A stretch of 64,000 nt of DNA from Pachysolen tannophilus NRRL Y-2460 (Eukaryota). Under the pieces are notes generated by a model. It did not search any database, was not told where the DNA came from, and saw only the letters and a program-made list of their open reading frames with translations. The stretch's first letter is position 1. Each line of letters begins with the position of its first letter. Shown here piece after piece: positions 7,658 through 53,768 of this stretch. The stretch spans positions 1,538,418-1,602,417 of the forward strand of contig KV454012.1 in the NCBI GenBank assembly GCA_001661245.1. Reading direction: 5' to 3'. Both the position numbers and the translations under genes were made by a program.

Positions 7658-8503
7658 ATGGTTAAAATTATTAGTTCGATTATTCAGTTCCTATTATTGG
7701 CAGGTACTACTCTTTTACTTCTTTTCATTGTTATGTCAGGGTCCATTGATCATGCTCCAATTGATAAATTTTATTGGATTCAAGCTGATACTTCTGGTAT
7801 TTCTGGAGCTCCTTCAATTTCAAAATGGACTTTTTGGGGTATTTGTTCATATGAAGGAGGATCTACAAATGGGAATTGTGATAATTTAGGTCCACTGTAT
7901 GCTTTTTCACCAGTTGATAATTTTAATACTACAACAAATGTTCCAACTAGTTTTGTTGATAATAGAGATACTTATTATTATTTAACTAGATTTTCATGGG
8001 TTTTTTATCTTATTTCATTAGTTTTCATTGGTGTTTCATTTATTTGTTGGTGGTTTAGTGGATTTATTGCATCAATGAAATTTACTTTAACATTTTTCAC
8101 TTCTTTAACTTTATTATTGGATACTACTGCTACATGTTGTCAAACTGCTGCAATTGTATTGGGGAAAAATGCATTTCTGAGTTCTGGATTATCTTCAAAA
8201 CTTGGTCCATCAATGTTGGGTATGGCTTGGGCTTCAGTTCTGTGTTTAATTTTATTATCATTTGAAACTTGTTTTTCTGCTGCAAGAAGTTCATTTTTAG
8301 AACATAAACAAAGACATGATTTAGAGAAACAACAAAGAGATTTATATAAACTGGATCCAGAAATGGGTGCATTTCAACAACTGCAAGTAACTCAACCAAA
8401 TACAGCACAAAATCAAGGAACATTGGCTTCTAATAATGAAGGAGGAATTAGATTTTTCAAAATTAGAAGAAATAATAGAACAAGTGATGAGGAATCAGTT
8501 TAA
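7658..8503 (+). CDS. SUR7: Sur7-family eisosome/MCC tetraspan membrane protein
   Basis: ATG at 7658 (MVKII...). Motifs FYWIQADTSGI, WTFWGIC, SPVDNFNT, YYYLTRF, MLGMAWASV, and a C-terminal GIRFFKIRR...DEESV typical of Sur7. Confidence 0.9.
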   Translation: MVKIISSIIQFLLLAGTTLLLLFIVMSGSIDHAPIDKFYWIQADTSGISGAPSISKWTFWGICSYEGGSTNGNCDNLGPLYAFSPVDNFNTTTNVPTSFVDNRDTYYYLTRFSWVFYLISLVFIGVSFICWWFSGFIASMKFTLTFFTSLTLLLDTTATCCQTAAIVLGKNAFLSSGLSSKLGPSMLGMAWASVLCLILLSFETCFSAARSSFLEHKQRHDLEKQQRDLYKLDPEMGAFQQLQVTQPNTAQNQGTLASNNEGGIRFFKIRRNNRTSDEESV

Positions 8504-9024
8504 AATAGAATTAAAAAAAAAATTTTTTAGTAAAAAAAAAAAAAAAAAAGAACATTTCTATTATTAAAAAAGCTAACAATTTTAATTGAGAAACCACACA
8601 TATATTACAATTACCAAATAATAATACTGTACTGCACATTAACACTAATAATTACTTTTAATCACTAGAATTTCATTCATTTAATTATTTTTTAATATCA
8701 TATTTCTCTTGAATTGTTTGTTTATATTTAATGTGTTGTTGTAACTATATCCGATGAATAATTTTTTTTTTTTTTTTTTTATTTTTTTATTTTTTATTTT
8801 CTTCTTTTTCTTTATTAATAATTTTGCTGTTTTTCTTTTCTGGTTTATAATTAATTTTTCTTAATTTTTTTTTTTTTTGTTACGTTCCCAATTTTTCAAA
8901 CTCTTTATTCTATCGTTTTTAAATTTTTTCTTTTATTTTGAGCTTTTATTAAAAGTTTAAATATTTTGAATTAATACTATCTTATATACCATTTACTTTG
9001 TTCGGTAGGGGAGGTTGAAAAAAA

Positions 9025-9059
<35 letters not shown>

Positions 9060-9077
9060 ATATAATTTAAATTAAAA

Positions 9078-9167
9078 ATGATTGCAAGATTTTTAACAAA
9101 TAGAATTAGGAAAAATATAAACCTTAGAACTAAATGCGTTAATTATAAAAATGTTTTTTACATTAAA

Positions 9168-9201
<34 letters not shown>

Positions 9202-9491
9202 TAAACATAAATGTAGGAATTTTTTTTTATTCAACAAGTATTAAAGAAAAACAAGAAGCATTATTAATTTATAATGAATTAAATTCAATATTGAAAAATA
9301 AAACATTAACAAATTCAATTAAAGAAGAATTAATATTAGATATTTTTAAAAAAAATCAATTTGGTTCATTATATGATAATAGGTATCAAGAATTATTATC
9401 ATTATTAAAATTAAATAAACAATATGATACATTATGGGACATTGCCCTGATTTTTGAACGGTACCACCAGGATAAGCAAGAAAATCATTAA
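9078..9491 (+). CDS. Orphan protein A, 137 aa, with putative mitochondrial presequence; paralog of the ORF at 10007
   Basis: ATG in an A-rich context; Arg/Lys-rich, acid-free N-terminus; core aligns without gaps to the neighbouring ORF. Confidence 0.55.
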
Positions 9492-10006
9492 AAAATAACC
9501 ATTCCATTCCATCTGTTTACCCCCGCCCCCAACCTCCTTTTCTTACACACACGACTTTATAATTACTATCATTTGCTGGTCAAGATAAATATTATTTAAG
9601 AAAATTAAGAAATTTAGGAAATTTAGTAAATTTAGGAAAAGTGGGTTAATAAAATATATAAAAAAGAAAAAGATGCTGCAAAAGCTTAAAATCGAATCAT
9701 CTTATTTAATTTCTCCACCTTTTAGTACTTTTAGTACTATTTTAAATATTTTTTAAATATTGATTTCTCCCGTAATACACAAATATATGAAATGAAATAT
9801 GAGTATAAATACCGGTATATATATCCTGAATAATATAATATAATTTAATATAATTTAATATATTTAATATTTATTTAATTTTTTTTTTAATTGTATTTTT
9901 GCTTTTTTTTCTTTTTTTTTTTAATTATATATAATAAGTATATATATATATATATAAATATATATATATATTTATTATATATGTATATGTGTATTTATTT
10001 GTAGCA

Positions 10007-10615
10007 ATGTCTGTGAAGTCAATTGTCTTTAATGGCTTTAAGAGAAGTGGTAATAAAGCTAGGTTGATTGTATTACCAAGGTCATCATTATATTCGACTA
10101 AAATTTTTAATTATAATACCATTATACGTACTATTTCTGGTAATTCTGGTAATTCTGGGAATTCTGGTAATTTTGGTAATTTTGGTTCTCGAAAGAATAG
10201 TGATTACGATAAGGTTTATAATGAAGCAGTTTCAGTATATTATGAGTTATTATCGATATATAATGATCATTCAATTACTCCTGCTTTACAACGTAAATTA
10301 ATTAAAGGTTTATTTTTAAGTAATGGTGTTAATAGTATAGCAAGTCCAATTTTCATAAAAATTAATAAATTTATTAGGCAAGATCCAAATTTAGTTGAAG
10401 GTGAAAAATTTGATTTAGTTTATTTTTTAAATACAAATGATTCATACCTTTTCAATAATAAACTGGGGAATAATGATACTTTAACTTTGAATTCTTCTAA
10501 AATTAGGCTGAAGAAAGAAATAGGTGCAAGGCTTAATAAAAAAGCAGCAACTGCTGGTGTAGTTGGACTGATGGGAATAATGGGGGTTTATGCTTTAGTT
10601 TCTTTAATTTTTTAA
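10007..10615 (+). CDS. Orphan protein B, 202 aa, with putative mitochondrial presequence and C-terminal transmembrane/tail anchor
   Basis: ATG at 10007 (MSVKSIVFNGFKRSGNKARL...LYSTK); (S/F)GN repeat linker; hydrophobic C-terminus KKAATAGVVGxMGIMGVYALVSLIF. Confidence 0.65.
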   Translation: MSVKSIVFNGFKRSGNKARLIVLPRSSLYSTKIFNYNTIIRTISGNSGNSGNSGNFGNFGSRKNSDYDKVYNEAVSVYYELLSIYNDHSITPALQRKLIKGLFLSNGVNSIASPIFIKINKFIRQDPNLVEGEKFDLVYFLNTNDSYLFNNKLGNNDTLTLNSSKIRLKKEIGARLNKKAATAGVVGLMGIMGVYALVSLIF

Positions 10616-10706
10616 AATTCCTTCTTGTTCCATCAAAATATTTTATTTATTGAAACTGTTAATTCTTATCATGCATACTCATTATAAGTGTTCAGAAAAG
10701 ACAGAT

Positions 10707-10944
10707 TATTTATGCTCATGACCAATTTTATTTATTCAACTTATTTATTTATTTATTGAAACGTTTTTCCTTTATGATAAGATAAGGGGAAAACGCTTAT
10801 TTATGCTCACGACTCTTATTTATTTATTTATTTATTTATTGAAACTGTTTTCAATACCAAGTGCAAAATGCAATTGATATTGATTTCAGCTTATTTATGC
10901 TCACGCCCGCTCTTACAGAGAACACAAATCTATTTATGCTCATG
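10707..10944. repeat. Four dispersed direct repeats of TATTTATGCTCA(T/C)G
   Basis: Copies at 10707-10720, 10798-10811, 10892-10905 and 10931-10944. Confidence 0.9.
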
Positions 10945-11118: not shown

Positions 11119-11810
11119 ATTTTATTTATTTTATTTATTTTATTTATTTTATTTATTTTATTTATTTTATTTATTTTATTTATTTTATTTATTTTATTTA
11201 TTTTATTTATTTTATTTATTTTATTTATTTTATTTATTTTATTTATTTTATTTATTTTATTTATTTTATTTATTTTATTTATTTTATTTTATTTTATTTT
11301 ATTTTATTTATTTTATTTATTTTATNNNNNNNNNNNNNNNNNNNNNNNNNNNNNNNNNNNNNNNNNNNNNNNNNNNNNNNNNNNNNNNNNNNNNNNNNNN
11401 NNNNNNNNNNNNNNNNNNNNNNNNNNNNNNNNNNNNNNNNNNNNNNNNNNNNNNNNNNNNNNNNNNNNNNNNNNNNNNNNNNNNNNNNNNNNNNNNNNNN
11501 NNNNNNNNNNNNNNNNNNNNNNNNNNNNNNNNNNNNNNNNNNNNNNCATATTTTTTTATTTATCAAGTTATTATCATTATTTTTAAATTATTATTTTATT
11601 TATTTTATTTATTTTATTTATTTTATTTATTTTATTTATTTTATTTATTTTATTTATTTTATTTATTTTATTTATTTTATTTATTTTATTTATTTTATTT
11701 ATTTTATTTATTTTATTTATTTTATTTATTTTATTTATTTTATTTATTTTATTTATTTTATTTATTTTATTTATTTTATTTATTTTATTTATTTTATTTA
11801 TTTTATTTAT
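11119..11810. repeat. 9-bp A/T tandem repeat (TTTATTTTA)n, interrupted by an assembly gap
   Basis: Period-9 array directly visible at about 11119-11325 and 11593-11810. Confidence 0.92.
11326..11546. other. Assembly gap (N run)
   Basis: Run of Ns; the sequence after the gap re-reads the sequence at about 11075. Confidence 0.99.
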
Positions 11811-12075: not shown

Positions 12076-14946
12076 TTAAACATCTAAATGATGATGCCTA
12101 CACCTTGGATCAAAAGTCGAACAACATTTTTTAACATCTTCAAATTCAATAACAGGATGTTTCGATACTAATCCCGTTCTCATACCTTGGATTTTTTCTT
12201 CAAAACCTCTATTTTGTAAATCCAGCACATCATTTATAATGTTAAAATTGTTTCTCTCGTTATCTTGATGCTTTTCTCTCATTAAATGTTGAGATATACT
12301 AGCATCTGAGTAATCTCTTTGGTTTTCATGTCCTTTTTGTTCTTCATCTTGTTCTTGTTCTTGTTCTGTAATATTTTCATTCTTATCATTTTCTTCTTCC
12401 TCTTTATCTTTACAACTAGTATTCAAATGTAATTTTGATAAAACTTTTTTAGCCAACCCATCTACTTCATTTCCTTCTTGTTCATTATTAACCTCATTAA
12501 GATCCATATTAGAATTTTTAATCGTCTCTGATTCGAGTGATTCCTTTTCATCTTCAGGTAATAATGGTAAATCTTCAACCTCGTTGTTTTCCCTATCCTT
12601 TAATATACCACTACTTGACATGTGTGCATTCTTGTGTTCATAAGACTTCTTACGGTCCATAGATGCTGAACTCTCAGGAATTGGTGTTGGTGGAACTGAA
12701 TTCCCACTTCCACTTTGAGTTCCAGTACCAGTTCCGCTCCCATTCAGATTACTAGTGGACACACTAATACCCCCATGACCATTATTAATATGATTATGGC
12801 TATTTCCACCGTTCTGGCTGTGTACTGATCCACTCGAGCCTGCAACTACAACTCCACTCCCAAGCTCATTCGGATGTACATTTCCATGCCCATGTGCATT
12901 AACTTCTTCTGCAACTGCCAACATCGATTTGACTTGTTGCGGATTCCCATTGAAACTTGGAGCTCCAGTCGAATTACTACCTGAAGAAGAAGCTGATGAG
13001 ACCGAAGAAGTTCGTTTATCCAAATGAAGATATTGATGCTGTTGAGGAAATGAGACTCCACTGAAATCCAACATAGATCTACTATTATTCTTCGACATTG
13101 GCGACGAAGACAAACTATTATTTCGGGTATTGTTTCCTGTAGAATAATCAGTTGAATTCAAATCTTCTTCATCTTCTTCTTCGTCTAAATGATGGAGTTC
13201 ATCTGTGCATGTAGAAATTTTCTCGAAAAAGGGGTTTTTAAATAAATCAGCTAATGAATACCTTCTTTCTTGATTTGTATCGATTAATCTCCAACACATA
13301 TAAGCAGCATCTTTATTTTGAAATTCTCTAGCATATTGAAATTCTGGTCCAGGCCCATCCTTTGGATTTTTAAAATTTGGATTACCATGTAAATAAGTAG
13401 CAAGAGAAGTTTGATATTTTCTATAATTTTCATCATTTGGTGAACTTTCAGCAAAAGGTGTATGTTGATAAACCAAAGTTAATAATAACATACCTAACCC
13501 CCATGAATCCATTTTAAAAGGATTTACCTGTTCTAATTGAGTATTATTACTCTTAGCTATACTAGTACTTTGTAAACTAGTAGCGTTACTTTCATTATCC
13601 TTACCAGAGGAAGTTGGTAACAGCATCATTTCAGGTGGGGCATAAGGTGGACTTCCAACTCTTGATTTACAATAATTAATACCCGATTCTAAATTTCCCG
13701 GTTCTAAATGTCCAAAACATGATATACCAAAATCGGTTAATTTTACCACACCATTCAGTGTTAATAAAACATTTTCAGGTTTTAAATCACGATGACAAAT
13801 ATCATGTTCATGCATAAACTTTAAACCAAATGCAACTTGTTTGAAAATACATAATTTTTCTTTCAATGGTATATATTTAAAATTTTTCTTTACAATTAAA
13901 TCAAATAAATCACCACCAGTACATAATTCAAGTGTTAAACCCCAACCTCTATTCATACTTCCTATAGTTGGTGTTTTCAATAATGTATATGTTGTAACTA
14001 CATGATAACCATGCAGTAAATTTTTAGCAATGATATATTCATGAATTGCTCTTTTATAAAATTGTTCTGGAGTTTCTTTTTTAAATAAAATAAATTTTTT
14101 AAAAGCAATTTTTTTATTTTTATTTTTTTTTGAAAGAACAATTCTAACATCTGATGAAGCACCATCACCTAATCTATTTTCTTTTGATTTTTCTGGGAAA
14201 TCATAAAGATCTAATAAATCAACATTACTTTGTTTTAAATCATCTGGAAGATAATCATTTGGATTATCAATGGGTAATGGTAAGATATTTTTTGTTTGAC
14301 TATCTTCATCTTCTAAATAAAAACTAGGATTCTTTGGACCTCCAGCAGCATTACCAGCATTTATAAGACCATATGGATTATAAACGATTTTTTCTTTTGG
14401 TTTTGTAAAAGTAGTAGATGAATTGTTACCAGATCCAGATCCATGATTTTCATTATTATGATTAATATTTTTATGACTTGAAATTGAACCTGAAGCTGAT
14501 CTTCTCAATTTACTATTATTTCTAGAATTAATTATAGATGATTGAGAAGATGCTAAATCTGTGGTACTTCTAATGTGGAAAAATGATCTTGCCTTTTTCC
14601 TAAATTTATGATCTATTTCACCGCTATTTCCATTTCCATTTCCGCTTCCACTGCCGGCACCGACACCTCCACCAGCACCATCGTTATTTTCGTGGTGATG
14701 AAGCACCTTATGGAACGGGTTTCTCATTGCAGCTGCTGAAGAAGCTGTAGACGCGGATGACGAACCTCTTGAACGAAACACTTCTTTAGTATGATTACTA
14801 TTGATCCGTGGAGACGTCAGTGACAGTGGAGAACTATTTGAACTTTCTGTAATAAATGGATTCCTACTATGACTCACAATTGGATTTTCTTTAGTCAGTG
14901 GAGACAATTGTTTAGTACCGCTATTATTCTTTGTAGTTGCTGTCAT
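12076..14946 (-). CDS. PTK2: Ptk1/Ptk2 (NPR/HAL-group) Ser/Thr protein kinase
   Basis: First ATG at 14946. Motifs IVYNPYGL, LPLPIDNPNDYLP, ETPEQFYKR, RGWG, HRDLKPEN, KLTDFG and GSPPYAPPE match Ptk2. Confidence 0.85.
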   Translation of the reverse strand: MTATTKNNSGTKQLSPLTKENPIVSHSRNPFITESSNSSPLSLTSPRINSNHTKEVFRSRGSSSASTASSAAAMRNPFHKVLHHHENNDGAGGGVGAGSGSGNGNGNSGEIDHKFRKKARSFFHIRSTTDLASSQSSIINSRNNSKLRRSASGSISSHKNINHNNENHGSGSGNNSSTTFTKPKEKIVYNPYGLINAGNAAGGPKNPSFYLEDEDSQTKNILPLPIDNPNDYLPDDLKQSNVDLLDLYDFPEKSKENRLGDGASSDVRIVLSKKNKNKKIAFKKFILFKKETPEQFYKRAIHEYIIAKNLLHGYHVVTTYTLLKTPTIGSMNRGWGLTLELCTGGDLFDLIVKKNFKYIPLKEKLCIFKQVAFGLKFMHEHDICHRDLKPENVLLTLNGVVKLTDFGISCFGHLEPGNLESGINYCKSRVGSPPYAPPEMMLLPTSSGKDNESNATSLQSTSIAKSNNTQLEQVNPFKMDSWGLGMLLLTLVYQHTPFAESSPNDENYRKYQTSLATYLHGNPNFKNPKDGPGPEFQYAREFQNKDAAYMCWRLIDTNQERRYSLADLFKNPFFEKISTCTDELHHLDEEEDEEDLNSTDYSTGNNTRNNSLSSSPMSKNNSRSMLDFSGVSFPQQHQYLHLDKRTSSVSSASSSGSNSTGAPSFNGNPQQVKSMLAVAEEVNAHGHGNVHPNELGSGVVVAGSSGSVHSQNGGNSHNHINNGHGGISVSTSNLNGSGTGTGTQSGSGNSVPPTPIPESSASMDRKKSYEHKNAHMSSSGILKDRENNEVEDLPLLPEDEKESLESETIKNSNMDLNEVNNEQEGNEVDGLAKKVLSKLHLNTSCKDKEEEENDKNENITEQEQEQDEEQKGHENQRDYSDASISQHLMREKHQDNERNNFNIINDVLDLQNRGFEEKIQGMRTGLVSKHPVIEFEDVKKCCSTFDPRCRHHHLDV

Positions 14947-17305: not shown

Positions 17306-17312
17306 TCACGTG
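17306..17312. promoter_or_regulatory. Cbf1-type E-box TCACGTG in the RPL32/MED19 divergent promoter
   Basis: TCACGTG at 17306-17312. Confidence 0.4.
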
Positions 17313-17670: not shown

Positions 17671-18198
17671 ATGACAATGGCAATTATGAATGAGGACAAT
17701 ATAGCCAATACCCAAGATGATGCTTTGCAGAATAATAGGAACAATAATTATTATTTCATAGATAAAACAAAGATATATGAACCTTTATTACCTTCACCAT
17801 CTTCAAACCTTATAGCACTTTATGGACTAAATGATATATCTAAATCAGTTCTGCGAACTAATCCAGATGGATCTAAAGGAGTTAAATTAAGAAAATCTTA
17901 TAAGAATCATATAGCAGATCTTCCAGGAAGACATAATATACAGAAAGAACATAATTTATCAATGATACTGTTTCTGCCTAGAGCAGAAGATAATTCATCA
18001 GTGGTTGATATTAAACCTTTAGATGATTCATATTTGAAAAGTTGTTTGAATTTTGAGAAAACTCCGTTAGCTGGAATACCGGGGTTTGATGTTTCACAAC
18101 TAGGTATGGATGATAGTGGTAATGATGAACGTAGAAAGAAAAGAAAGGATGCAAATAATACTGACAGTGGAGATGTTAAAAGAAGACATATTGCTTGA
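17671..18198 (+). CDS. ROX3: Mediator subunit Med19 (Rox3)
   Basis: YYFID...NLIALYGL..I...V(CTG)RTNPDGSKGVKLRKSYKNHIADLPG. Confidence 0.92.
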   Translation: MTMAIMNEDNIANTQDDALQNNRNNNYYFIDKTKIYEPLLPSPSSNLIALYGLNDISKSVLRTNPDGSKGVKLRKSYKNHIADLPGRHNIQKEHNLSMILFLPRAEDNSSVVDIKPLDDSYLKSCLNFEKTPLAGIPGFDVSQLGMDDSGNDERRKKRKDANNTDSGDVKRRHIA

Positions 18199-18328: not shown

Positions 18329-21300
18329 TTAAGATATTTCTTCATGTTCATTTCCATTTTTTTTTTGTAATTTTAATGAAGAATAACTTGTTATTTGCCT
18401 TAAAGGTTGTTTGATTCTTTTCTTTTTATGTACAGTTAATTTATTGGCAACAATTGACCCACTATGGTGCAATACAGCTTTAATTACTATTTTTTTCAAT
18501 TCATTCACCAAATCCATTGTAGTCCAAATCTTATTATTGAAAGTCATATCAGGTAAAGTCATTACAAGATTATTCACGTTGATCAATCTAAAACCACCTT
18601 CACCTTTAAAGTTAATACACAAGGCAAGACTTCTAATGGTTAATGAAACAATTGATTTATAGTCTGATGCACGTTTAACCATTTCGTTCACAAATTCACC
18701 ATCTTTAGCCAGCTTAGAGCTTTTTAATGATGAACCACTACTATAGTAATCGTCATTTTTATTATCATTTTTATTACCACTAGATCTTTTAAAATTAAAA
18801 GATTTTCTAGAAGTAGGACCAGTACTAGTAGCAACGCCTTGAGAGTTCTTTTCAGAACTCCTTGAATTTATAATATCTAGTCCATTTTCTGCCATTTCTT
18901 CCGAATCTAGATCTTCTGATATAGAGGAATCTCTATCTATATCGTCTTCAAAAATTTCATCGTTTAAATCACTTTCAGATTCATCTTGACCAGAAGATTT
19001 TGAAATGGATTTATTCTTATCAGATGGGAAAATATATTCAAAAAACTTCTGACCGGTGAATTGCTCCAAAGATAATTTGATAGGTTTAACTTCAATCACA
19101 AAATTTTTAATAATTTTAATACCACCAACCAGTTTATCCATAGCCCATTCAACTTGGAGCATATTGTTCTCTCTTTTTGAAATAGGAGCCTTTACTTGTT
19201 TAGGATTAAATGAAGTTAATAATTCTGGATATAAGATGTTTGAGTCCAAGTTAAAAGCTTGAATCATACCAACTTCGACCACATTATAATTTGAACCGTC
19301 ATTTTCAGATATTCTTCTAAAGACACCCTCTGCAACTGCAAGATCTATAAATGGTGCTCTTTTCTCATCTAACATATGTAAAATAATTTCATCCGATCTG
19401 ATCGTCCACTCAATTTGTTCATCCTTTTTAGAAGCTCCTGTAGTACCTGTCGTTATGACTCTCATTAAAAGAAATAATTCTGATAAGATATGTGTCTTTT
19501 GGAAGTTTACCACATTGAGCTGATTTGCCTCGCTTTCATTTAAAATTGTTCTTTTAAAAGTGAAGTTATCACTAAGTTGTATCAAAAATAAATAAGCATC
19601 TTGTAATGATTTAATCCTATCTTGCGTTCCGTTCAAATTAGAAAAATCAGTAGTTAATATCAATTTCCCTAATTTTTCATTCATTTCCTTATTCGAAGGC
19701 TCTGTGTACATCAACAAATTCACAATGATATTGTAAAGTGCATGGTATTGCTTAGAGTCACAAAAGGCAGCAACTTTGGGTACCTCAACAATTATTCGAT
19801 TTCTGTTATAATCACTCAAAACATTTTTCTTAATCATTTGGTTCATTTTATCATATCTTAAAACAAAAGAAGTTTTTTCCAAAACCATATATTCCATTAA
19901 CGATGATCCATCGTGACATAATTCTACACCAAGCCATGGCGGCCATATATTTTTTGAGCCATAGCTCCTACCACTGAAAAATGATGAGGAGTTTTTGATA
20001 ACATCTTCTTTATAAGCAACAAAGATGTTAGTATCACGGAATACAGAACCGTGTCTTCTCTCAAGTTCAAATTGGTCATCTATAACGATTTCATTTCCAT
20101 TCTTATCACGTTGAGTTTTTTGGCCGATTGAAACAATTTTTAGTTCAATATCTGGTGAAACAACTAAAACACATGAATCGCTTTTCAAATCATCATTAAT
20201 TAATTGAATTTGAGGAGATATTAATTTAACCAAGTAGTTATCAGAAGCTTCAAATTTTTTATCTGTCGATTTGCTATTAATAGATCTCAAATCTTCATCA
20301 AATTTTTCTAGTCTCTCTGAGCAAGAGATATCATCATAGGAATAATTGATGTCAGAAAAATCAGTCTCTGAAGCTCCTTCTTCTTCGGCAATTTGTTCTG
20401 ATTTAGCAGAAGATATCTTTTGCAACTTCAGAGATTCAGAATCTAATCCATAATTCAGTTTTTGTTCACGAATGATCTTCTCGACTGTATCAAATGCTTG
20501 GTATTTCAAATAATATGTATAAGCTTTTCTAATATCAACAAAATGAGCATATTTATAAACAAAATTTCTGTTTAGACGGTTCCATTTCAATTGCATATTA
20601 TGAACTAGGAATTTATTTTGAAAAGATTCATAAGATAATCCAAGGTTATTTTCATCAAATTTTCCTGTTGCGACTTCCGAAATAAGAGCTCCCACATTTT
20701 GTAAACCTTTATCGAGTTTCTGCAAAATTGCCTGTTTACTAGCATTATTTGATGTAGCTACCGAATCTCTGCGAGCTTGTAACTCTTTTAGTCTATCCTT
20801 CAATAATCTTAGTTGAGTTGCAGTTGACTTACTTTCTCCCATCAAGCAATCATGTATCAATGCACCTTCACTTTCGCCCGGTTCCTCATTATTATCATCT
20901 GTTTTTCTGTAATATGTAAATTTTGGAGTAAATAAAAGAGGAACAACTCTTGTTACCGATTTGACATCGGCGACAGATGGCAAATCAACCTCCTCAAAAT
21001 CATTGATATCGAACCACGTCTCATCGTCATCTCCAAGGTTATTAAAAACGTGAAGCTTAGTCTTCTGTTCTTCTTTTATGTCAGAATGATAAGTTGGATC
21101 TAAACCAGCAATTTCTAAAAACTCCTCTTTATGTACATCATAAGAATCATCAGCCACCTTGAATAAACTACGCAAGGCTCTCAAGTCGGTATTATTGATA
21201 TCAACCTCGCCTAAGTACATTTTCATTTTCCTGACTTTCTGAGTTTGATCTAATATTTTGTCATGTTTAACCTGTGATTCTTTCATTTGGTGCAAGTCGA

Positions 21301-29904: not shown

Positions 29905-31611
29905 CTAAACAATGGTTTCCATATAGCTTCTTCTCTCACTAGCTGCATCAGAATTGTGTCCAATCTCAGTAACAGCAGAATTAGGATTATTCAGATGTTC
30001 TGTTCTGTTCCTTTCGATTAATTCACGTCTTTCTCTATCCAGTCTTCTTGCCTCATAGATACGAACAATGAGATAACTCTTTATATCATCTTTTCCAAAT
30101 CCCATTAATCTCCAGAAAAACTTTGATTTCCAATTGTAATAAGTTGGTAATTTTGCTTCTGCTTCTTCACGAATATTAATAACGTCAATTGGATTTATGC
30201 CGTTGTCCATATCATTGCCATTAGAGCTTACAGTAACATTTGTAGTTGCATCGGTTGTGATAGTAGTATTGGTGGTTGCATTATTGGTACCATTGCTGTT
30301 TTGGCTATTGTTATTGTTACTCTGGGTATTATTGTTATACGTATCGGCAACCAACAATAATTCGGCTGCTCTGGCAACAGTTGGTCTCGGATATATAGTT
30401 TCAAATTCTTCGGTATATGATTCATTATCATTGTTATTAGCATTATTTAGGCTAACGTCATCTTCTTGACTATTGGCATTTTGATTATCCTTCATATAGT
30501 AGTCTCTTTTACACATTGGACAGCAAGCCTTCCTTGTAATTAACCAAGGATCAAGACACTCTTGATGGAATACATGACCACATATTAAGCCTCTTACCAA
30601 ATCTTCGGGCTCTAATACTTCAAGACAAATAGCACATATTCCCGATGAAAAATGAAGCTCATTTGAATCATGCACATGTTCATGTCCATGTCCATGGTCA
30701 TGTTCATGCAGGCTATTGTCCTTCTTTTGGTCTTCGGCCAAATCTACTTCTTCTATCTTGGGATCCAGCTTTTCATTTGATGCCGTGAAATCTTCATCTT
30801 CATCTTCATCTGCAGTTACAGCACCTGTAACTTTCTTTAAGTGGCTTGAATTAGAAGAGGAAGGTAACTCTGTAATATCTAAATCATTTAGTTCTATTTC
30901 TCCCGTTTCCTCCAGAGCCTCATTACCGTTATTATTAGATACAGCTGTAATCACTGGCATGCCCGCTTGTGTAACTGCTGCTGTACCTACTGATGTGCCT
31001 GCTGTTGTAACTGCTCCTGCTCCTGCTACTTCTTCTTCTTCATCATCATCAATCACCAGCAGAGGTATATCATTACCATAAACAATTATTCCGTCTTCTC
31101 TTCTCAGATGATCTTCCTCTCTACCACCGTTGAGCCAATCACTATATGTCTTTACAGGAAATAAAGTTTCCACCTCATCTTTTGTTAACTTTCTCTTCTT
31201 CTTATATCTCCTTCTTTGAAGCCTTCTTCTTGCTCTGGCAGACAAAAGGGTATCATAATCTCTTCTAAAAGCATAAGCACTGTATTCACTATTTGGACCA
31301 TATTGGAGTCCGACAAAGGCAAATCTGCCTCTTGCGATAGCAGCAGCACCACCAATACTTGAGTTACTTGTTCTATAAGTATCGAAACTATTTGACTGTG
31401 GAATATAAAGACCAAATTTCGTCTTAAAAAAATATCTAAGTGTGAAAAATACAAACAATAATGCAATACAAACTCCAACAGCAAGTGCTATGAAAAACAA
31501 AACGGTTGATGGTGTATTTCCAATAAAATCTGATGAATTTGACGAACTACTTGTACTAGTCAGGGTTGGGGTAACAGAACTGGATGTCGAAGTTGTAGTA
31601 GTATCCAGCAT
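29905..31611 (-). CDS. Single-pass membrane RING-H2 E3 ubiquitin ligase (fungal ATL-like)
   Basis: First ATG at 31611. S/T-rich N-terminus, TM helix VLFFIALAVGVCIALLFVFFTLRY, RING-H2 CAIC...CGHVFHQECLDPWL...CPMC. Confidence 0.85.
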   Translation of the reverse strand: MLDTTTTSTSSSVTPTLTSTSSSSNSSDFIGNTPSTVLFFIALAVGVCIALLFVFFTLRYFFKTKFGLYIPQSNSFDTYRTSNSSIGGAAAIARGRFAFVGLQYGPNSEYSAYAFRRDYDTLLSARARRRLQRRRYKKKRKLTKDEVETLFPVKTYSDWLNGGREEDHLRREDGIIVYGNDIPLLVIDDDEEEEVAGAGAVTTAGTSVGTAAVTQAGMPVITAVSNNNGNEALEETGEIELNDLDITELPSSSNSSHLKKVTGAVTADEDEDEDFTASNEKLDPKIEEVDLAEDQKKDNSLHEHDHGHGHEHVHDSNELHFSSGICAICLEVLEPEDLVRGLICGHVFHQECLDPWLITRKACCPMCKRDYYMKDNQNANSQEDDVSLNNANNNDNESYTEEFETIYPRPTVARAAELLLVADTYNNNTQSNNNNSQNSNGTNNATTNTTITTDATTNVTVSSNGNDMDNGINPIDVINIREEAEAKLPTYYNWKSKFFWRLMGFGKDDIKSYLIVRIYEARRLDRERRELIERNRTEHLNNPNSAVTEIGHNSDAASERRSYMETIV

Positions 31612-34168: not shown

Positions 34169-35779
34169 CTATTTGGTTGTCTCTTGAATTGGTGATTTTT
34201 TAACTTCGACTTCGTCTCCAGTTTCAGTTATTTCAGTGGTCTTTTCAGTGGTTTGATTACCATAATCTTCTAAAGTACCAGCTTGAGCATCATCACCTAA
34301 ACCAAATGTACCAGTCCATCCATTCAGTCTTAAGTAATTTTCATATCTGACATCTTCCATCATTAAATCTTCATCTGTCAAATGAGGAATGCAGAGAAAG
34401 GCAATGACAACACCAACGGAACCTAAGATTGCACCAATGATAAAAGTCCATCTCTTACCTAAATTGTCCTGAATTGCAGTAAAACATTGGTTACCAATTG
34501 CTGCTCCTGCTTTACCAACAGCGGCTGATAATCCATAAAAAGTTCCTCTAATTGGTGTTGCGTAACATTCACTTGAAGTTAATCCCATATTATCACCAGG
34601 ACCTAAATTACCCATAGAATTGAAAAGACCATAAAAGATAATGAATAATGGAACAATTTTTGTTAATTGTTCATAAGCACATCCTATGATAAGACCAATG
34701 ACTAAATAACCGGAAAATCCAATCATTAAAGTATATTTTCTACCAATGACATCAACCAAATAAGCACCTACAAATACACCTGGAATTGCAATGATACCCA
34801 AAAGTAAAGTCCATTCACCAACTCTTTCTAAATTTGAAGAATCACTAATAACTGAAGAAATAATTGTTGATGAAAAAATACCATTTGGAAAAGTAATAAA
34901 ATCATAAATAAACCAACAACCACAAGTACCAATAAGTCTTTTCCAATAAAATTTAATTGATAATAAATAAGGAACATTATGTCTTATAGCAGATTTTTTA
35001 TACAAAACTGAAGTTGCCATTCTCCAACGGAAATAAAAAATAGCCATTGGCCAAAAAATACCAATTCCTAAACAAACTCTCCATGCTGTAGATAAATGAG
35101 TTGGACCAGTACATTTATAAACAATAAGAAATACAATTGTTGCAAATGGACCACCTAATGATAAGGGTAAATTTGTTACAAGACAAAATAACCCACCTCT
35201 ACGTTTAGTACTTTCATTTGCAGATTCTGAAGCAGCAGTGGAACAACTTGGATATTCTCCACCAACACCAAAACCAGTGATACCTCTACTAACAACCATC
35301 ATCCAAAACATCCCTGCAGTGGTAGATCCATGTGCAACAGTACACATCAATGAACCCAAGATAATCAATAAAGTCGTAGATACAATAGCCCATTTTCTAC
35401 CCATATAATCACAACAAACACCAACCACAACTTGACCAATAATAGTACCAACAGTTAAAGAGTTGGAAACTCTTGTCTTAACCGTGGAAGTATATGCTTT
35501 AGGGTATTCCTTGGTGAAAACATTGTTCAACATAGTCATAATGTTATTCTGATAACCATCACTAATCAATGCAACACCAGAACAAATAATGGTCAAGATA
35601 TCTGAAATTGATTTGATCTTAACAAATCTATCTGCTCTTTCGCGCTTATCATATCTAATTACACCACCATCAAAACTTGAAGACGACACTGTGTCTTGTC
35701 TCTCAAATACATCATTTTGAGATTTGTCCGCAGTAGTTTCTTCCTGCTCGTGTTCAACTATACCAACAGACTTTGACAT
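34169..35779 (-). CDS. GIT-family glycerophosphodiester:H+ symporter (MFS)
   Basis: ATG at 35779. ALISDGYQNN, DYMGRK, GFGVGGEYP, GNLGPGDN...SSECYATPIRGTFYGLSAAVGKAGA. The specific paralog (GIT1 versus GIT3-like) cannot be resolved by eye. Confidence 0.9.
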   Translation of the reverse strand: MSKSVGIVEHEQEETTADKSQNDVFERQDTVSSSSFDGGVIRYDKRERADRFVKIKSISDILTIICSGVALISDGYQNNIMTMLNNVFTKEYPKAYTSTVKTRVSNSLTVGTIIGQVVVGVCCDYMGRKWAIVSTTLLIILGSLMCTVAHGSTTAGMFWMMVVSRGITGFGVGGEYPSCSTAASESANESTKRRGGLFCLVTNLPLSLGGPFATIVFLIVYKCTGPTHLSTAWRVCLGIGIFWPMAIFYFRWRMATSVLYKKSAIRHNVPYLLSIKFYWKRLIGTCGCWFIYDFITFPNGIFSSTIISSVISDSSNLERVGEWTLLLGIIAIPGVFVGAYLVDVIGRKYTLMIGFSGYLVIGLIIGCAYEQLTKIVPLFIIFYGLFNSMGNLGPGDNMGLTSSECYATPIRGTFYGLSAAVGKAGAAIGNQCFTAIQDNLGKRWTFIIGAILGSVGVVIAFLCIPHLTDEDLMMEDVRYENYLRLNGWTGTFGLGDDAQAGTLEDYGNQTTEKTTEITETGDEVEVKKSPIQETTK

Positions 35780-44021: not shown

Positions 44022-45035
44022 ATGTCAACTATTCCGGAATTTCAAAAAGCAGTTTTATTTCACGAACCAGGTGGACTCGATAAACTCAAGTATGAAGAAA
44101 TTCCAGTTCCTAAAGATTTAGCAGATGAAGAAGTTTTAATTGCTAATAAATATGTTGGAGTTAACTTATTTGATTCACTTCTTAGATCAATGGAACAATT
44201 GCCTTCTTGGTACCCACTGACTTACCCAATTATTCCAGGGTTTGAAGGCTCTGGTATAGTTGTCAAGGTTGGTAAAAATGTTACCAAATTGAAAAATGGT
44301 GATAAAGTTGTTTATGCGGGAAGCAGTACTTTTACGCAGTATACTAAGGTTAACGCTAACAGCGTTCTTAAATTGTCAAACGATCTGAAGGATGAAAAGC
44401 TTCTGAAATATACTGCACTAGTCAGTGGTGGTTTAACTTCTTTATGCTTGACCAATGAAGCTTATGAACTTAAGAAGGAAGATTACGTGTTGTTGTATGG
44501 TGTTGGAGGTGGTGTTGGATTGGTATTGACTCAATTACTGAGCAAAAAAGGAGCACATGTAATTGCAGTTGCTTCATCAGATGAAAAATTAGCTCTGGCA
44601 AAGCATTATGGAGCTGAATTTCTTATCAATCATAAGAAGGAAGATATTTTGAAAAGAGTTAAAGAAATAACCGATAATAAAGGTGTTCAAGTGGTTTACG
44701 ATAGTGTTGGGAAAGAAGTGAGCGATATCTCATTTGAATCGTTGGCCGTTAAAGGTACGTGGGTTATATTTGGTTTTGCATCTGGGCCTACTCCACCTGT
44801 TAATCCGCTTCTCTTGTTCCAAAAAAATCTGAAACTTGTTAGTTGTACCTTATACAACACTCTTACTTCTCCTTCTGCATGGGAACATTACTATGATGAA
44901 TTCTCACATGTTGTTGAGAAAGATGGTCTTGAAGTTCCTATTGAGATTTTTCCTATAGAAGAATATTCAACAGCAATTGCTAAATTGGAGGGTAAAAAAG
45001 TTGTTGGGAAATTGCTATTAGAGATTTCTTCATAA
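44022..45035 (+). CDS. Zeta-crystallin/NADPH:quinone oxidoreductase (MDR family), ZTA1-like copy 1
   Basis: NKYVGVN, PGFEGSGIVV, GGGVG, GAHVIAVASSDEKL, VYDSVGK, FGFASG, GKLLL. Confidence 0.9.
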   Translation: MSTIPEFQKAVLFHEPGGLDKLKYEEIPVPKDLADEEVLIANKYVGVNLFDSLLRSMEQLPSWYPLTYPIIPGFEGSGIVVKVGKNVTKLKNGDKVVYAGSSTFTQYTKVNANSVLKLSNDLKDEKLLKYTALVSGGLTSLCLTNEAYELKKEDYVLLYGVGGGVGLVLTQLLSKKGAHVIAVASSDEKLALAKHYGAEFLINHKKEDILKRVKEITDNKGVQVVYDSVGKEVSDISFESLAVKGTWVIFGFASGPTPPVNPLLLFQKNLKLVSCTLYNTLTSPSAWEHYYDEFSHVVEKDGLEVPIEIFPIEEYSTAIAKLEGKKVVGKLLLEISS

Positions 45036-45531
45036 TTCAAGTAAAATATATAATTTATTGCTGAATTGAGATTGCCACAACGTTTTAGTGTTTTTAATTA
45101 AATATATTAAATTCAATTTCGATTTTAAACGAAACCGAATATCTTATCGTTCTTTATTAATAATGATTAATAATTGAACTATCATGTAAACTCCGAAGAA
45201 TTATTCTTTGTAACGTATTTTTACTACAAGGTTAAAAGGGCATTGAAAGTAATCTTTGAATGTTTCAAGAAATTGAGTTTGAAAGGATCTAAACCATTCT
45301 TGTAACTCGGTGTTAATGAAAAAATGGACCACACAAGAGCGGACCAGGTTTAGAAAATTAATGTCGATGCCTCTGCTCAAAAAATTACAGCTTATCTCCG
45401 TTATTAGAGAAGTTGAACAATCAGCATGATCGTGATTACTAATAATAGTTCATCTATAAATATGTGGACATCGATGCTCTGTACAATGAAAAGTAGACAT
45501 ACCAGATATTGATATTAATCTATCATTGACA

Positions 45532-46533
45532 ATGACCAATATTCCAGAAACTCAAAAAGTTATCTTGTATCATGAACAAGGTGATCTTGATAATCTAAAA
45601 TATGTGGAAAATTACGAGGTTCCTGAAATTATAGAAGATAATGATGTATTAATCGCCAATAAATATGCTGGTGTTGGATTCGTTGACTCGCTTATAAGAG
45701 GTTCAGAAGGGTTTCCTCCTTGGTATCCAAAAAAATTTCCAATTATTCCTGGACTTGAAGCTTCAGGTATTGTTGTCAAGGTTGGTAAAGGTGTGAAAAA
45801 TGTTAAACCTGGTGACAAAGTTGTTTACACTGGATTTTACACTTTTGCTCAATTTACGAAAACTCCAGCTTCAATTGTTTTCAAATTACCTGATGACACT
45901 TCTGATGAAAAACTCATAATATACACTTCATTAATCGTGAATGGTATAACGGTTTTAGGTCTAATCAATGAGTCCTACAACGTTCAAAAAGGTGATTATG
46001 TATTGTTATATGCAGCAGGTGGTGGATGCGGCTTAATTTTCAGCAAATTATTAAGTCAAAGAGGTGCTCATGTTATAGCAGTTGCATCTACCGATGAGAA
46101 ATTGGCTTCAGCAAAGGAAAATGGTGCAGAATTTTTGATCAACCATAAGAAGGAAGATGTTTTGAAAAGAGTTTTAGAGATAACAGATAATAAAGGTGTT
46201 CAAGTGGTTTATGACAGTATTGGGAAGGCCAATGTTGATATTTCCTTTGGATCTTTAGCTAAGAATGGTTCTTGGATTATTTTCGGATTTGCATCAGGTG
46301 TTCCAGAATTTAATTTACGTCTGTTGGTACCAAAAAATGCAAAAATTGTTGGTGCCTCCATGTTTAATTTCGACTATCAAAGACATGGTTCTCAATTACA
46401 AGATTTAGTTGAAAATCAAGGTTTTAAGATTCCATATGAAATTTTCCCTCTACAGGATTATAAGAAAGCAGCTGCAAAGATGGAATCAAGAGAAGTGGTT
46501 GGTAAATTGATATTGAAGATTCCCCCTTCTTAG
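45532..46533 (+). CDS. Zeta-crystallin/NADPH:quinone oxidoreductase, ZTA1-like copy 2
   Basis: ATG at 45532; colinear tandem paralog of 44022-45035. Confidence 0.9.
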   Translation: MTNIPETQKVILYHEQGDLDNLKYVENYEVPEIIEDNDVLIANKYAGVGFVDSLIRGSEGFPPWYPKKFPIIPGLEASGIVVKVGKGVKNVKPGDKVVYTGFYTFAQFTKTPASIVFKLPDDTSDEKLIIYTSLIVNGITVLGLINESYNVQKGDYVLLYAAGGGCGLIFSKLLSQRGAHVIAVASTDEKLASAKENGAEFLINHKKEDVLKRVLEITDNKGVQVVYDSIGKANVDISFGSLAKNGSWIIFGFASGVPEFNLRLLVPKNAKIVGASMFNFDYQRHGSQLQDLVENQGFKIPYEIFPLQDYKKAAAKMESREVVGKLILKIPPS

Positions 46534-50614: not shown

Positions 50615-51356
50615 TTGAATTTTTTTTTTTTTTTTTCGTCTGTTAGATCTATTCAACCCTTAATTTTTTGCATATTTACATTTTTCCCAATGGATTCTTC
50701 AGCCTTTTGAAAATTTTTAAATTTTTATTTTATTTTTATTCTACTTTTTCTAGTTCGTTTGGGTTTATACATTTCACTGGTTTGAATGCTTTTAGTTATA
50801 TATTTTTGTTTTGAAAATGGAATCTTTATAGTCCTTTTTAGTATTTCTGTTGTCTTGTGTCACATTTAGATGATATATGCAGTTATATGCTTGTTGGTGC
50901 ATATAACTGCATTTATAGTACATGAACATGCATTTATGTTTACAACTTACATTACACAAAGTAGAAAAATGAAATAAAATACACAAAAGAAGTGATTGAA
51001 AGGTTATTACAATTGACCTATGATATAGGTTTTGTACTCTCCGTAAATTTTTTCGTTAACCTAGAGTGATTATATGATGCTTACAATTTAAACTTTGTTT
51101 TCTTCACTTAGATTTTGGGTTTGACCGTAAGATATTAAGAAACACAGTTAGAACTGAACGATGATCCATCAGTTGTTCTTTAAATCTTGATTTCCAAAGA
51201 ACTCAGTAATTTTTATTCTTTTTTTTTCTATTTATTTTCCTAAGCTAGTCAAAATTATATCCATATATGAAAGTTAGGACATAAGGCTTTAGATACTAAA
51301 GTTTAGCAAGAGAGGTTTTTCTTTCTTTTTTTCTTTTTTTTTACTTTATTTAAATA

Positions 51357-53768
51357 ATGATGACTTCGTTAATTAACAATCATTCTAATTTGAATTCGAC
51401 CCTTGGAGATTATGAGGAAACTTCACAAATGATGAGCTCTGCAATAGAAATCAGAAGTAATAAAGGTAATATCAACTTGGCTAAGCAATCAATGAAAATA
51501 AATAGTGGTACCTCTTTTATTTCAGAAAAGAAACACATTGATCAGTGGGGTACAGCGAGCGAGAATTTAGATGAAATTGAGGATGAAGACGAAAGAGAAG
51601 GGCATGTGAAAAGAAAGAGGTCGGATGATATTGTTAAAGACAAGGCTTTTATTAAAATGCTTGAAGAATATCGTGTTGTTCCCGAGACTGAATTTACAAA
51701 ACAGAAACTTGTTCCACATTCATCACTGGCTGAAGAACAAATTGAAACCAATTATGTTTCACAAGCAAACAATAATAAAGCAAGCGGTGTTATTGAAGAC
51801 AAAGAAACAGAAATAATTTATTCTGGAACTTCAATACAACTGCCTAGCTCCAGTACACAAACAATTAACTCTGCAGTAAATTACCAAGAATTTAAAAAAT
51901 TTAGAAATGCTATCCAATATTGTTTATGCATTTCTATCACAGGGTTTCTTTTCGGATACGATATAGGAACAATTGGTGGATTAGTCAATTTACCTTCATT
52001 TAAACAAAAGTTTGGTGACGATAGAACTATTGAGTCATTACCAAGTTTTAAAAGAAACACATTAGGAATTATAATTGGTAGTTTTAGTATTAGTGCAGCT
52101 TTTGGAGGATTATTTCTTTCTAGCTTTGCAGACAAGATTGGAAGAAGATTTGTTTTAATTATTGCAATGATATTATATATCTTGGGTGATTTTGTCATTA
52201 GTTTAAGTTCGCAATGGTATTTTGTATTGATTGGTCGTTTCTTGAACGGTTCCGGTATTGGTTGTTCTTCTTCAGTTTCCCCAATGTTTATTAGTGAATT
52301 AGCTCCTGCTAAATTAAGAGGTACTTTAGTTTCAGCTTTACAGTTTTTAACAACTTTAGGAATCTTGACGGGATCATTTGTTATATTTTTCTGTAAGAAC
52401 TTGCAAGGAACAAATCAATTTTTAGTTCCTTTATACATTGGATTTGGTCTGGGTATATTTTCAATTGGTTTACTTTTAACAGTTTTGGAATCTCCAGTTT
52501 ATTTAGTCAAATCAAATAATTTGGAAGATGCTAGGTGTGCGATAGCATATTTGAATCATATCACTTTAGATCATTGGTATGTTGAGCATTGCATGACTGA
52601 AATTAAGTCAAGGTTTCGGGAAAAAATTGAAGATTTGCAAAATACATACCAGCAGCAAAAGGGTCATAGCATTAAAGCAAAAGGTTATTCTTATCATGAA
52701 GATAACTTACTCCCTTACGCAATTTGTGGGATTATATTAATGTCACTTCAACAATTTACAGGAATCAATTATTTTTTCTTTTACGGTACATCAATCTTTG
52801 GTAGTGCCGGTATAGATGATCCATATCTTACATCAATTATATTAGCTGCAGTTAATTTTATTTTTTCTACAATTGCTCTTTTATTAGTTGACAAATTTAA
52901 GAGAAGATTTCTATTATTTTTGGGTAGTCTGATTATGTTTTCATGTATGATAAGTTTCTCTAGTATTGGAACATTTGCATTGAGCAAATCTTCTGGTGAA
53001 CAAAATTCTTTTCCTGGTATAGTTATGATTATATTCACATGCATATTCATTGCAGCTTTCACTTTGAGTTGGGGTCCTTTATCATATGTGGTTGTCAGTG
53101 AAGTTTTTCCATCAAAATTTCAAAGTAAAGGTACTTCAATTTCAACAACTGCAAATTGGGTTTCTAATTTCTTAGTTTCCTTCTGTACTCCATTTATTAC
53201 GGAGAAAATTGGTTTTAGTTATGGGTATGCATTTGCATTTTCATTATGCTTGAGTATGTTATTTGTATGGTTTTACATTCCAGAAACTAAATTGAAGAGA
53301 ACGAATGCATCACAAAATGTGATGGATCAAGCAGAAGAAGCTGAAATAGTTTCTGATGAATTTTTTGAAATGAGACATATTCCAATTGATAATAACGAAA
53401 TAGAAATTAATCCTCGAGAACGTCGTGAAATAATTGAAATACATGAAATAAATGAAACTAGTGAAACTAGTGAAATAAATGAAACAAGCGAAAAATCTAG
53501 TGGAAATATAGATAACCTCAATATAAACAAGAATAACAATAACTACCAACCAGATCATCGTACAATTACAACAACTTCTCCAGGTTCAGTATTATACACC
53601 TTACCAACACCACCATTGGGTGAAAATGGCAATGTCAACCCGGTTAAAATTGCAAGAAATGCAAAAGCAACAGAAGGTATCGGCATACAAGAAGTAAAAT
53701 TACAAGAAGCAAAAGATGTAGACAAAAATGAAGGTAGCAAAGACATTAACTTTAACCCATTCGACTAA
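51357..53768 (+). CDS. Sugar porter (hexose transporter, HXT14-like) with long N- and C-terminal extensions
   Basis: GFLFGYDIG, DKIGRR, PMFISELAP..LRG, LESP, QQFTGINYFFFYG, SWGP, SEVFP, PETK. Confidence 0.88.
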   Translation: MMTSLINNHSNLNSTLGDYEETSQMMSSAIEIRSNKGNINLAKQSMKINSGTSFISEKKHIDQWGTASENLDEIEDEDEREGHVKRKRSDDIVKDKAFIKMLEEYRVVPETEFTKQKLVPHSSLAEEQIETNYVSQANNNKASGVIEDKETEIIYSGTSIQLPSSSTQTINSAVNYQEFKKFRNAIQYCLCISITGFLFGYDIGTIGGLVNLPSFKQKFGDDRTIESLPSFKRNTLGIIIGSFSISAAFGGLFLSSFADKIGRRFVLIIAMILYILGDFVISLSSQWYFVLIGRFLNGSGIGCSSSVSPMFISELAPAKLRGTLVSALQFLTTLGILTGSFVIFFCKNLQGTNQFLVPLYIGFGLGIFSIGLLLTVLESPVYLVKSNNLEDARCAIAYLNHITLDHWYVEHCMTEIKSRFREKIEDLQNTYQQQKGHSIKAKGYSYHEDNLLPYAICGIILMSLQQFTGINYFFFYGTSIFGSAGIDDPYLTSIILAAVNFIFSTIALLLVDKFKRRFLLFLGSLIMFSCMISFSSIGTFALSKSSGEQNSFPGIVMIIFTCIFIAAFTLSWGPLSYVVVSEVFPSKFQSKGTSISTTANWVSNFLVSFCTPFITEKIGFSYGYAFAFSLCLSMLFVWFYIPETKLKRTNASQNVMDQAEEAEIVSDEFFEMRHIPIDNNEIEINPRERREIIEIHEINETSETSEINETSEKSSGNIDNLNINKNNNNYQPDHRTITTTSPGSVLYTLPTPPLGENGNVNPVKIARNAKATEGIGIQEVKLQEAKDVDKNEGSKDINFNPFD

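Follow-up and report, generated by a model that had tools for sequence, protein, structure and literature searches.

Reassignment of a sense codon in a nuclear genome is rare and interesting. In Pachysolen tannophilus, CUG is read as alanine (NCBI table 26; PMC4937558). Mass spectrometry assigned alanine to 97.2% of 907 CUG positions (PMC4937558), and for P. tannophilus Supplementary Table 1 of PMC5951914 gives alanine at 243 of 256 sites, leucine at 3 and serine at none. In peptides, CUG has been published as alanine for three species of the clade (PMC4937558, PMC5951914). The corresponding order, Alaninales, consists of Pachysolen, Peterozyma and Nakazawaea (PMC5951914, PMC11182611), and its diagnosis is the alanine meaning of CUG (PMC11182611), which the genome analysed here shares. 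The CUG-Ser codes (Ser1, the 'CTG clade', and Ser2, the Ascoideales; table 12) concern the same codon, likewise captured by a tRNA with a changed anticodon. However, those codes use a serine tRNA, which has a long variable arm, whereas the tRNA used here is one for alanine.

We analysed a stretch of 64,000 nucleotides, hereafter the window, together with the genome from which it comes. The initial annotation had proposed, from in-frame CTG codons, that CTG means alanine and that the DNA belongs to the CUG-Ala clade. That the nuclear genome uses table 26 is, in our judgment, almost certain, given a tRNA(CAG) with an alanine-type body, alignments that exclude leucine and public records that translate the codon as alanine. 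Membership in the clade, order Alaninales, is supported and that reading upheld; the same tRNA lies beside the clade's 'vlphppls' marker gene. The strongest evidence, and the decisive one, is this tRNA gene, which is located outside the window. No difference of the nuclear code from that of P. tannophilus (PMC4937558) was found. The code itself was published in 2016 and is applied in public protein records; the window contributes examples, not knowledge.

The tRNA with a CAG anticodon and a G3:U70 pair that the initial annotation proposed to look for is present as a single-copy gene of 72 nucleotides (G000:C6:217831-217902, minus strand). It forms a cloverleaf with G1G2G3C4, G3:U70, A73, G37, a variable loop of 4 nucleotides and no long variable arm; PMC4937558 describes the same G1GGC4, G3:U70, A73 and G37 and the same lack of an extended variable loop. 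Its first 12 bases are identical to those of the genome's own alanine tRNAs, to which its overall identity is 54/73 for Ala(AGC) and 51/73 for Ala(UGC). This corresponds to 70-74%, compared with 62-77% to GCN tRNAs in PMC4937558. Identity to four leucine tRNAs is 44-53 of 82-86 positions, and to two serine tRNAs 44-45 of 82-84, although identity alone separates tRNA types poorly, as a glycine tRNA reaches 50/73 and one Leu(CAA) 53/82. An open reading frame that adjoins the gene (C6:215686-216975) contains the motif VLPHPPLS, and the legend of Supplementary Fig. 5 in PMC5951914 names 'vlphppls' as a marker gene of the Ala-clade tA(CAG) locus. Judged on that marker as named in the legend, the arrangement matches the published locus of Alaninales. 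The published tRNA sequence appears in a figure; searching the PMC5951914 supplement for it as text gave no match.

ARAGORN labels the tRNA(CAG) as leucine, a label it assigns from the anticodon, and tools of this kind will miscall it as 'Leu'. Further searches for a CAG anticodon used exact patterns on a draft and possibly incomplete assembly, from which a divergent tRNA could escape. A pattern for the D-arm of leucine and serine tRNAs matched 19 distinct places in the genome, 18 of them tRNA-like, none with a CAG anticodon; this includes 10 serine-type tRNA genes. A pattern combining the A-box with CAG gave 4 matches, of which 1 is a tRNA, namely the alanine-type gene on C6. An earlier anticodon/T-arm pattern, which required a gap one base longer than that of the C6 gene, gave 22 matches including 1 tRNA, a Leu(CAA). 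The tRNA(CAG) is not listed among the 63 Rfam candidates that were scored out of about 1,003, and ARAGORN found no CAG anticodon in 30 of these 63 loci. No tRNA gene was found in the window. Two approaches were discarded: a relaxed ARAGORN run that allowed introns returned only implausible, AT-rich folds, and minimum-free-energy folding of the tRNA(CAG) was no better than for shuffled sequences (z -0.59) and was not used as evidence. The one element that may be unreported is a side observation, which concerns the mitochondrial code and its tRNA, a short-arm tRNA(AAG).

Within the window, CTG accounts for 85 of 15,409 codons in 25 open reading frames. It occurs in 21 of these 25, which compares with 80% of genes in PMC4937558; the claim that the code changes every protein here is thus slightly too strong, although it holds for most of them. 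Three window proteins were looked up by exact match in NCBI/UniRef. The table-26 translation was present for all three, and none of the six versions translated by table 1 or table 12, with leucine or serine, was found.

The most informative sites are in two proteins, for both of which the initial annotation had correctly stated alanine in homologs. In Rox3/Med19, the in-frame CTG for residue 61 (17851..17853, plus strand; SV-x-RTNPDG) falls in the most conserved alanine column that was tested, with alanine in 39 of the 42 best matches and 66 of all 85; serine occurs in 1 of the 42. In the Sur7-family protein, the in-frame CTG for residue 80 (7895..7897, plus strand; GP-x-YAFSPVDNF) is likewise in a conserved column (46 homologs: Ala 35, Asp 7, Gly 3, Leu 1, Ser 0), and the Pfam SUR7 score of the whole protein is 165.2 bits with alanine, 163.1 with serine and 158.8 with leucine. 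A second Sur7 codon, which the initial annotation did not cite (residue 195; 8240..8242, plus strand), is also informative, the same 46 homologs having Ala 36, Val 6, Thr 2, Gly 1, Phe 1 and neither leucine nor serine. The closest named Sur7 homologs (47-51%) are proteins of Candida arabinofermentans, Ogataea and Kuraishia, the latter two genera belonging to the sister Leu2 clade (PMC5951914).

Two further sites lean mildly toward alanine. The sugar porter CTG (52929..52931, plus strand; GS-x-IM), in frame as had been claimed, is aligned in 9 paralogs with Ala 4, Pro 2, Val 2, Gly 1 and no leucine or serine. In the Hobbit/FMP27-family protein, which has 13 CTG codons, that for residue 2540 (19130..19132, minus strand) has Ala 12, Pro 10, Asp 3 and Asn 1 among 26 homologs, and the 11 scorable CTG columns of the protein give log-likelihoods (lnL) of 4.5 for alanine, 3.4 for serine and -12.3 for leucine. 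An Ade5,7-like protein was compared with PDB chains by eye and left uncounted; the human chain has alanine opposite two of its CTG codons, the fungal chain opposite one.

Several other cited codons are present without speaking for alanine. The Ptk2 CTG ahead of the DFG motif (13756..13758, minus strand; LLT-x-NGVVKLTDFG) is in frame, but its column is variable among 69 paralogs (K15, A10, D6, P5, S4). It is not leucine-like (kinase Pfam score: Ser 132.9, Ala 131.0, Leu 128.0 bits) and is otherwise uninformative. In the GIT-type transporter, the CTG close to the C-terminus (34325..34327, minus strand; YLR-x-NGW) is also in frame but uninformative: it is outside the Pfam stretch, and the one paralog that spans it, L206, has aspartate. 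The two codons in the glutamine run of the Sds3-like protein (QQQ-x-QQQ-x-QQQQ, open reading frame 803-4240, minus strand; the CTG pair at 1496..1510, within CAG CAA CAA CTG CAA CAG CAG CTG CAA) are best explained as point changes from CAG to CTG; since this takes one base change and CAG or CAA codons flank both, they are silent on the residue. The RING protein does begin ATG CTG GAT (CTG at 31606..31608, minus strand), but this is weak evidence for a Met-Ala-Asp start, as the second codons of the 25 window reading frames include CTG once, TCN nine times and GCN twice. GQ-CTG-PP, noted as an exception, is present at 27354 in the RRM reading frame.

Pooling the columns gives a clearer result for leucine than for serine. 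In a profile test over 81 CTG columns, lnL was +11.7 for alanine, +0.8 for serine and -50.9 for leucine, which is thus 62.6 natural-log units under alanine. Alanine was best in 4,243 of 5,000 bootstraps (85%), serine in 305 and leucine in none. Applied to all 61 sense codons, the same test recovered the standard residue for 58 and missed it for CGC (n=7), CGG (n=6) and CTG. Left out were the kinase L150 (stop in the frame used) and CTG columns with occupancy below 60%, which removed 15 of the 56 CTGs in kinases (any in L150 among them) and 2 of the 13 in Hobbit. Only Hobbit, Sur7 and Rox3 rank alanine first. Sugar porters rank methionine first and alanine second, the ZTA1 family favours valine and leucine (Leu 2.6, Ala 1.7), and the kinase paralogs lean toward lysine, glutamine and serine (Ala -5.6, Ser 1.5); the kinase columns were rejected for naming the residue, being too divergent. 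A majority residue exists in 16 of the CTG columns, and it is alanine in 4 of them and leucine in 4. In 27 Pfam domain stretches elsewhere in the genome, alanine scored above leucine in 24, below it in 2 and equal in 1 (total +60.2 bits); 56 of 146 CTG-bearing reading frames were left out of this comparison, as were 2 of 29 domain stretches, which are WD40 repeats. Against serine, alanine scored higher in 16 of these stretches, lower in 9 and equal in 2, with +11.3 bits and p=0.23 in a sign test. For 15 window proteins the tally was 5 wins and 6 losses, and these scores were set aside as too weak to discriminate the two residues. The profile and Pfam scores agree that CTG shuns conserved leucine columns. 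By the alignments, leucine is firmly excluded, and the separation of alanine from serine is only modest.

The alternative that survives best, though we consider it unlikely, is that CUG is mainly alanine with a leucine fraction, of a few percent or dependent on conditions, through mischarging of the tRNA(CAG) or wobble by tRNA-Leu(UAG). The tRNA(CAG) does carry A35, G37 and A73, elements that the papers give as those of leucine tRNAs, and the ZTA1 quinone-reductase pair has CTG columns dominated by leucine. Copy 1 of ZTA1 has CTG (44829..44831, plus strand; KN-x-KL) opposite GCA in copy 2 (46339-46341), as had been put forward as an internal control, but among 118 homologs this column has Leu 88, Val 9, Cys 9, Ile 6 and Ala 5. 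The control is double-edged, and we do not accept it by itself as evidence for alanine. A second CTG of copy 1, opposite TCA (44595..44597, plus strand), counts against alanine, with leucine in 82 of 118. A third (44538..44540, plus strand; QL-x-SK), correctly noted as an exception opposite TTA, is mixed: leucine in 11 of the 15 best matches, and Ala 72 and Leu 22 among all 118. Published leucine sites number 3/256, 4/497 and 1/137 in three Ala-clade species, and the data allow low-level incorporation of other residues (PMC5951914). However, the same Supplementary Table 1 has similar stray counts for other residues and in other clades, CUG was found to be as unambiguous as AUG (PMC4937558), and an origin of CTG from leucine codons by single base changes would account for its presence in leucine columns. 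If the mixture were real, genes such as the ZTA1 pair would yield mixed Ala/Leu proteins, under an ambiguous code that the papers cited here do not report for the clade.

Serine, as in table 12 and the Ser1 or Ser2 clades, is very improbable. Pfam hardly splits serine from alanine, with serine ahead in the 9 stretches and 6 window proteins mentioned above, and serine took a small share of the bootstraps; however, it is virtually absent from the Sur7 and Rox3 columns, none of the 10 serine-type tRNA genes has CAG, the only tRNA(CAG) found lacks a serine variable arm and has A73, and none of the three serine translations is in the public collection. The standard code, with CUG read as leucine by a CAG tRNA or by wobble of tRNA-Leu(UAG), has next to no probability, for although leucine dominates two ZTA1 columns and is the majority residue at two kinase CTG columns, some true Leu(CAG) tRNAs also carry G3:U70 (PMC4937558) and the acceptor stem of this genome's Leu(AAG) includes a G-U pair, the leucine lnL of CTG is strongly negative where those of CTA (+71.0), CTC (+30.8) and CTT (+185.3) are positive, leucine falls below alanine in nearly all Pfam stretches, and the tRNA(CAG) lacks the long variable arm present in all four nuclear leucine tRNA types shown (82 nucleotides or more).

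Under the alanine reading, alanyl-tRNA synthetase would charge the tRNA(CAG) through G3:U70 and A73 with the anticodon not being read, and the absent long variable arm would keep off the leucyl- and seryl-tRNA synthetases. The single tRNA-Leu(UAG) may offer little competition at CUG. Since two or more base changes separate CTG from every GCN codon, new CTG codons would probably arise from leucine, glutamine, methionine, valine, proline or arginine codons. Such an origin would cluster CTG in variable regions and glutamine runs, place some CTG in leucine columns, and leave an alanine signal in alignments that is weaker than for GCG.

The alanine meaning of CUG is confirmed by mass spectrometry, gives its name to a taxonomic order and is in use at NCBI/UniRef. 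For this organism it means that proteins need to be translated with table 26, as leucine is otherwise misplaced at conserved alanine sites, and that CTG codons need handling when genes are transferred into or out of P. tannophilus.

The initial annotation of this DNA read CTG as alanine, and we find that reading supported both by alignments, which exclude leucine, and by a tRNA(CAG) with an alanine-type body. CUG=Ala is an already known code here (NCBI table 26), and nothing in it is new; PMC11182611 gives it as the diagnosis of the order Alaninales. The species here is probably Pachysolen tannophilus. Translated with table 26, Sur7, ZTA1 copy 1 and the GIT-type transporter all match NCBI/UniRef entries letter for letter (3/3), while none of the six translations of these genes under table 1 (CUG=Leu) or table 12 (CUG=Ser) is found there. 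The annotators of this DNA therefore apply alanine already.

The window (G000:C2:1538418-1602417) is AT-rich budding-yeast DNA with a GC content of about 0.30. CTG accounts for 85 of the 15,409 codons in its 25 ORFs and is present in 21 of these ORFs; all CTGs cited by the initial annotation are in frame and correctly located. Pfam families found are SUR7, Rox3, Pkinase, Sugar_tr, RRM_1, ADH_zinc_N, Hobbit and RING. The gene names Ptk2, GIT, TIF3, ZTA1 and, provisionally, Sds3-like are those of the initial annotation. Runs of N lie at 5717, 5754-5986 and 11326-11546, where naive scans give spurious ORFs. Two short AT-rich ORFs, of 137 and 202 aa (9078-9491 and 10007-10615), occupy a stretch with a GC content of 0.18, and their N-terminal parts contain much Arg, Lys and Asn.

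We masked CTG in profiles and scored all 20 residues for each codon over 24,910 columns, taken from 70 kinase domains, 10 sugar porters, Hobbit (26 homologs), Sur7, Rox3 and ZTA1. As a control, the standard residue was recovered for 58 of 61 sense codons, the misses being CGC (n=7), CGG (n=6) and CTG itself. Over the 81 CTG columns, log-likelihoods were +11.7 for Ala, +2.0 for Thr, +0.8 for Ser and -50.9 for Leu; Ala won 4,243 of 5,000 bootstraps, followed by Thr (345), Ser (305), Gln (105) and Lys (2), and Leu won none. By family, Ala came first only in Hobbit, Sur7 and Rox3, and its signal per CTG column was 0.14, versus 0.81 for GCG. In a separate Pfam test on other loci, 146 CTG-bearing ORFs were found and 90 sent to Pfam; CTG fell within 29 of 49 domain stretches, 27 of which were scored under tables 1, 12 and 26. 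Ala beat Leu in 24 of these 27, with 2 losses and 1 tie (+60.2 bits), and beat Ser in 16, with 9 losses and 2 ties (+11.3 bits; p=0.23). These sequence comparisons therefore argue firmly against Leu at CTG, but favor Ala over Ser only modestly.

Individual sites vary in the same evidence. The proposed alanine columns at Sur7 7895 (of 46 homologs, 35 have Ala, 1 has Leu and none has Ser) and Rox3 17851 (39 of the 42 best matches have Ala, as do 66 of all 85) are strong, and a Sur7 CTG uncited in the initial annotation, at 8240, faces Ala in 36 of 46 homologs. The remaining CTGs in Sur7 (three) and Rox3 (two) lie in mixed columns; Rox3 17968 has Leu in 24/85 and Ala in 18/85. Sugar porter position 52929 leans toward Ala (4 of 9 paralogs, with no Leu and no Ser). 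The in-frame CTGs at Ptk2 13758 and GIT 34327 are real, but the former is opposite a variable column and the latter opposite Asp in the sole paralog spanning the site. The CTG of ZTA1 copy 1 at 44829 is indeed opposite GCA in copy 2, which had been offered as an internal control, but 88 of 118 homologs carry Leu in this column and 5 carry Ala. At ZTA1 44595, 82 of 118 homologs have Leu, and CTGs 44538 and 46321 have Leu codons opposite in the paralog. The poly-Q CTGs are set among CAG and CAA codons. The tandem quinone-reductase genes themselves (44022-46533) are 57% identical, and copy 1 has 6 CTGs, several in Leu-leaning columns. Proteins of Saccharomyces, Lachancea and Kluyveromyces (43-47%) are their closest named relatives, and the 120 matches listed include no named Pichiales protein.

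The initial annotation had also proposed a search for a tRNA with a CAG anticodon and a G3:U70 pair. A search with a pattern based on the acceptor stem of alanine tRNAs hit 20 places, one of them a tRNA, and this is the tRNA in question (72 nt; C6:217831-217902, minus strand), with one gene copy in the genome. Its anticodon is CAG, its variable loop has 4 nt, and it carries G1G2G3C4, G3:U70, A73 and G37, the features that PMC4937558 gives for the Pachysolen tRNA. It is identical to the genome's own Ala(AGC) at 54/73 positions and to Ala(UGC) at 51/73, sharing the first 12 bases; identity is 44-53 of 82-86 to Leu tRNAs and 44-45 of 82-84 to Ser tRNAs. The adjoining ORF (C6:215686-216975) contains VLPHPPLS; according to the legend to Supplementary Fig. 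5 in PMC5951914, a gene called 'vlphppls' lies at the tA(CAG) locus of the Ala clade. A Leu/Ser D-arm pattern matched 19 places, 18 of them tRNA-like: Leu-type with anticodons CAA (2), UAA (4), AAG (1) and UAG (1), and Ser-type with UGA (3), GCU (3), AGA (3) and CGA (1). None of these 18 has anticodon CAG, and among four matches to an intron-independent A-box+CAG pattern the sole tRNA was again the one on C6. A rival Leu- or Ser-type tRNA(CAG) is thus likely absent, though unproven because the patterns are exact and the assembly has 197 contigs. The tRNA(CAG) on C6 settles the residue at CUG as alanine. The only nuclear tRNA-Leu(UAG) found (G000:C8:422116-422249) is single-copy, with an intron of roughly 50 nt, and is the one tRNA that might compete at CUG through wobble.

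On the mitochondrial contig, C10, CTT is read as Leu. In Cox1 exon 1 (L104:6084-7013, a locus cut from C10), Leu is opposite all six CTT codons in both PDB chains compared, and ATA codons mostly have Ile opposite in an alignment read by eye. This pattern suggests table 4 (CUN=Leu, TGA=Trp) for the mitochondria. PMC9154068 places P. tannophilus under table 3, an entry that looks to be in error if C10 is from the same species. The only mitochondrial CUN-reading tRNA found (C10:25987-26059, L105:6987-7059; 73 nt) has anticodon AAG with G37 and no long variable arm; its closest match is mitochondrial Leu(UAA). Codon usage agrees with this anticodon: CTT 22, CTA 3, CTC 0 and CTG 0 among 3,622 codons of Cox1 exon 1 and 13 other ORFs. 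A thin literature search met no paper on this tRNA among the results listed, and it may still have been reported. Two other C10 frames (L103:9146-9893 and L105:7349-9279), presumably cox2-like and nad5-like, are each broken across two reading frames; assembly error, a short intron and frameshifting are candidate causes.

What we observe of the nuclear code is an Ala-bodied tRNA(CAG), no rival tRNA(CAG) found, and CTG kept out of Leu columns. PMC4937558 gives G3:U70 and A73 as the main alanine determinants, holds that the missing variable arm should block mischarging, and reports Ala at 97.2% of the 907 CUG positions that had full support. Counts of Ala sites in PMC5951914 include 243/256 for P. 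tannophilus, 472/497 for Peterozyma xylosa and 134/137 for Nakazawaea wickerhamii. Alanine charging of the tRNA(CAG) here would probably be the same as published. Because every GCN codon is at least two changes from CTG, new CTGs would arise from TTG, CTA/CTC/CTT, CAG, ATG, GTG, CCG or CGG. Such an origin from non-GCN codons would explain the poly-Q CTGs, the CTGs in Leu columns and the weak Ala signal per column.
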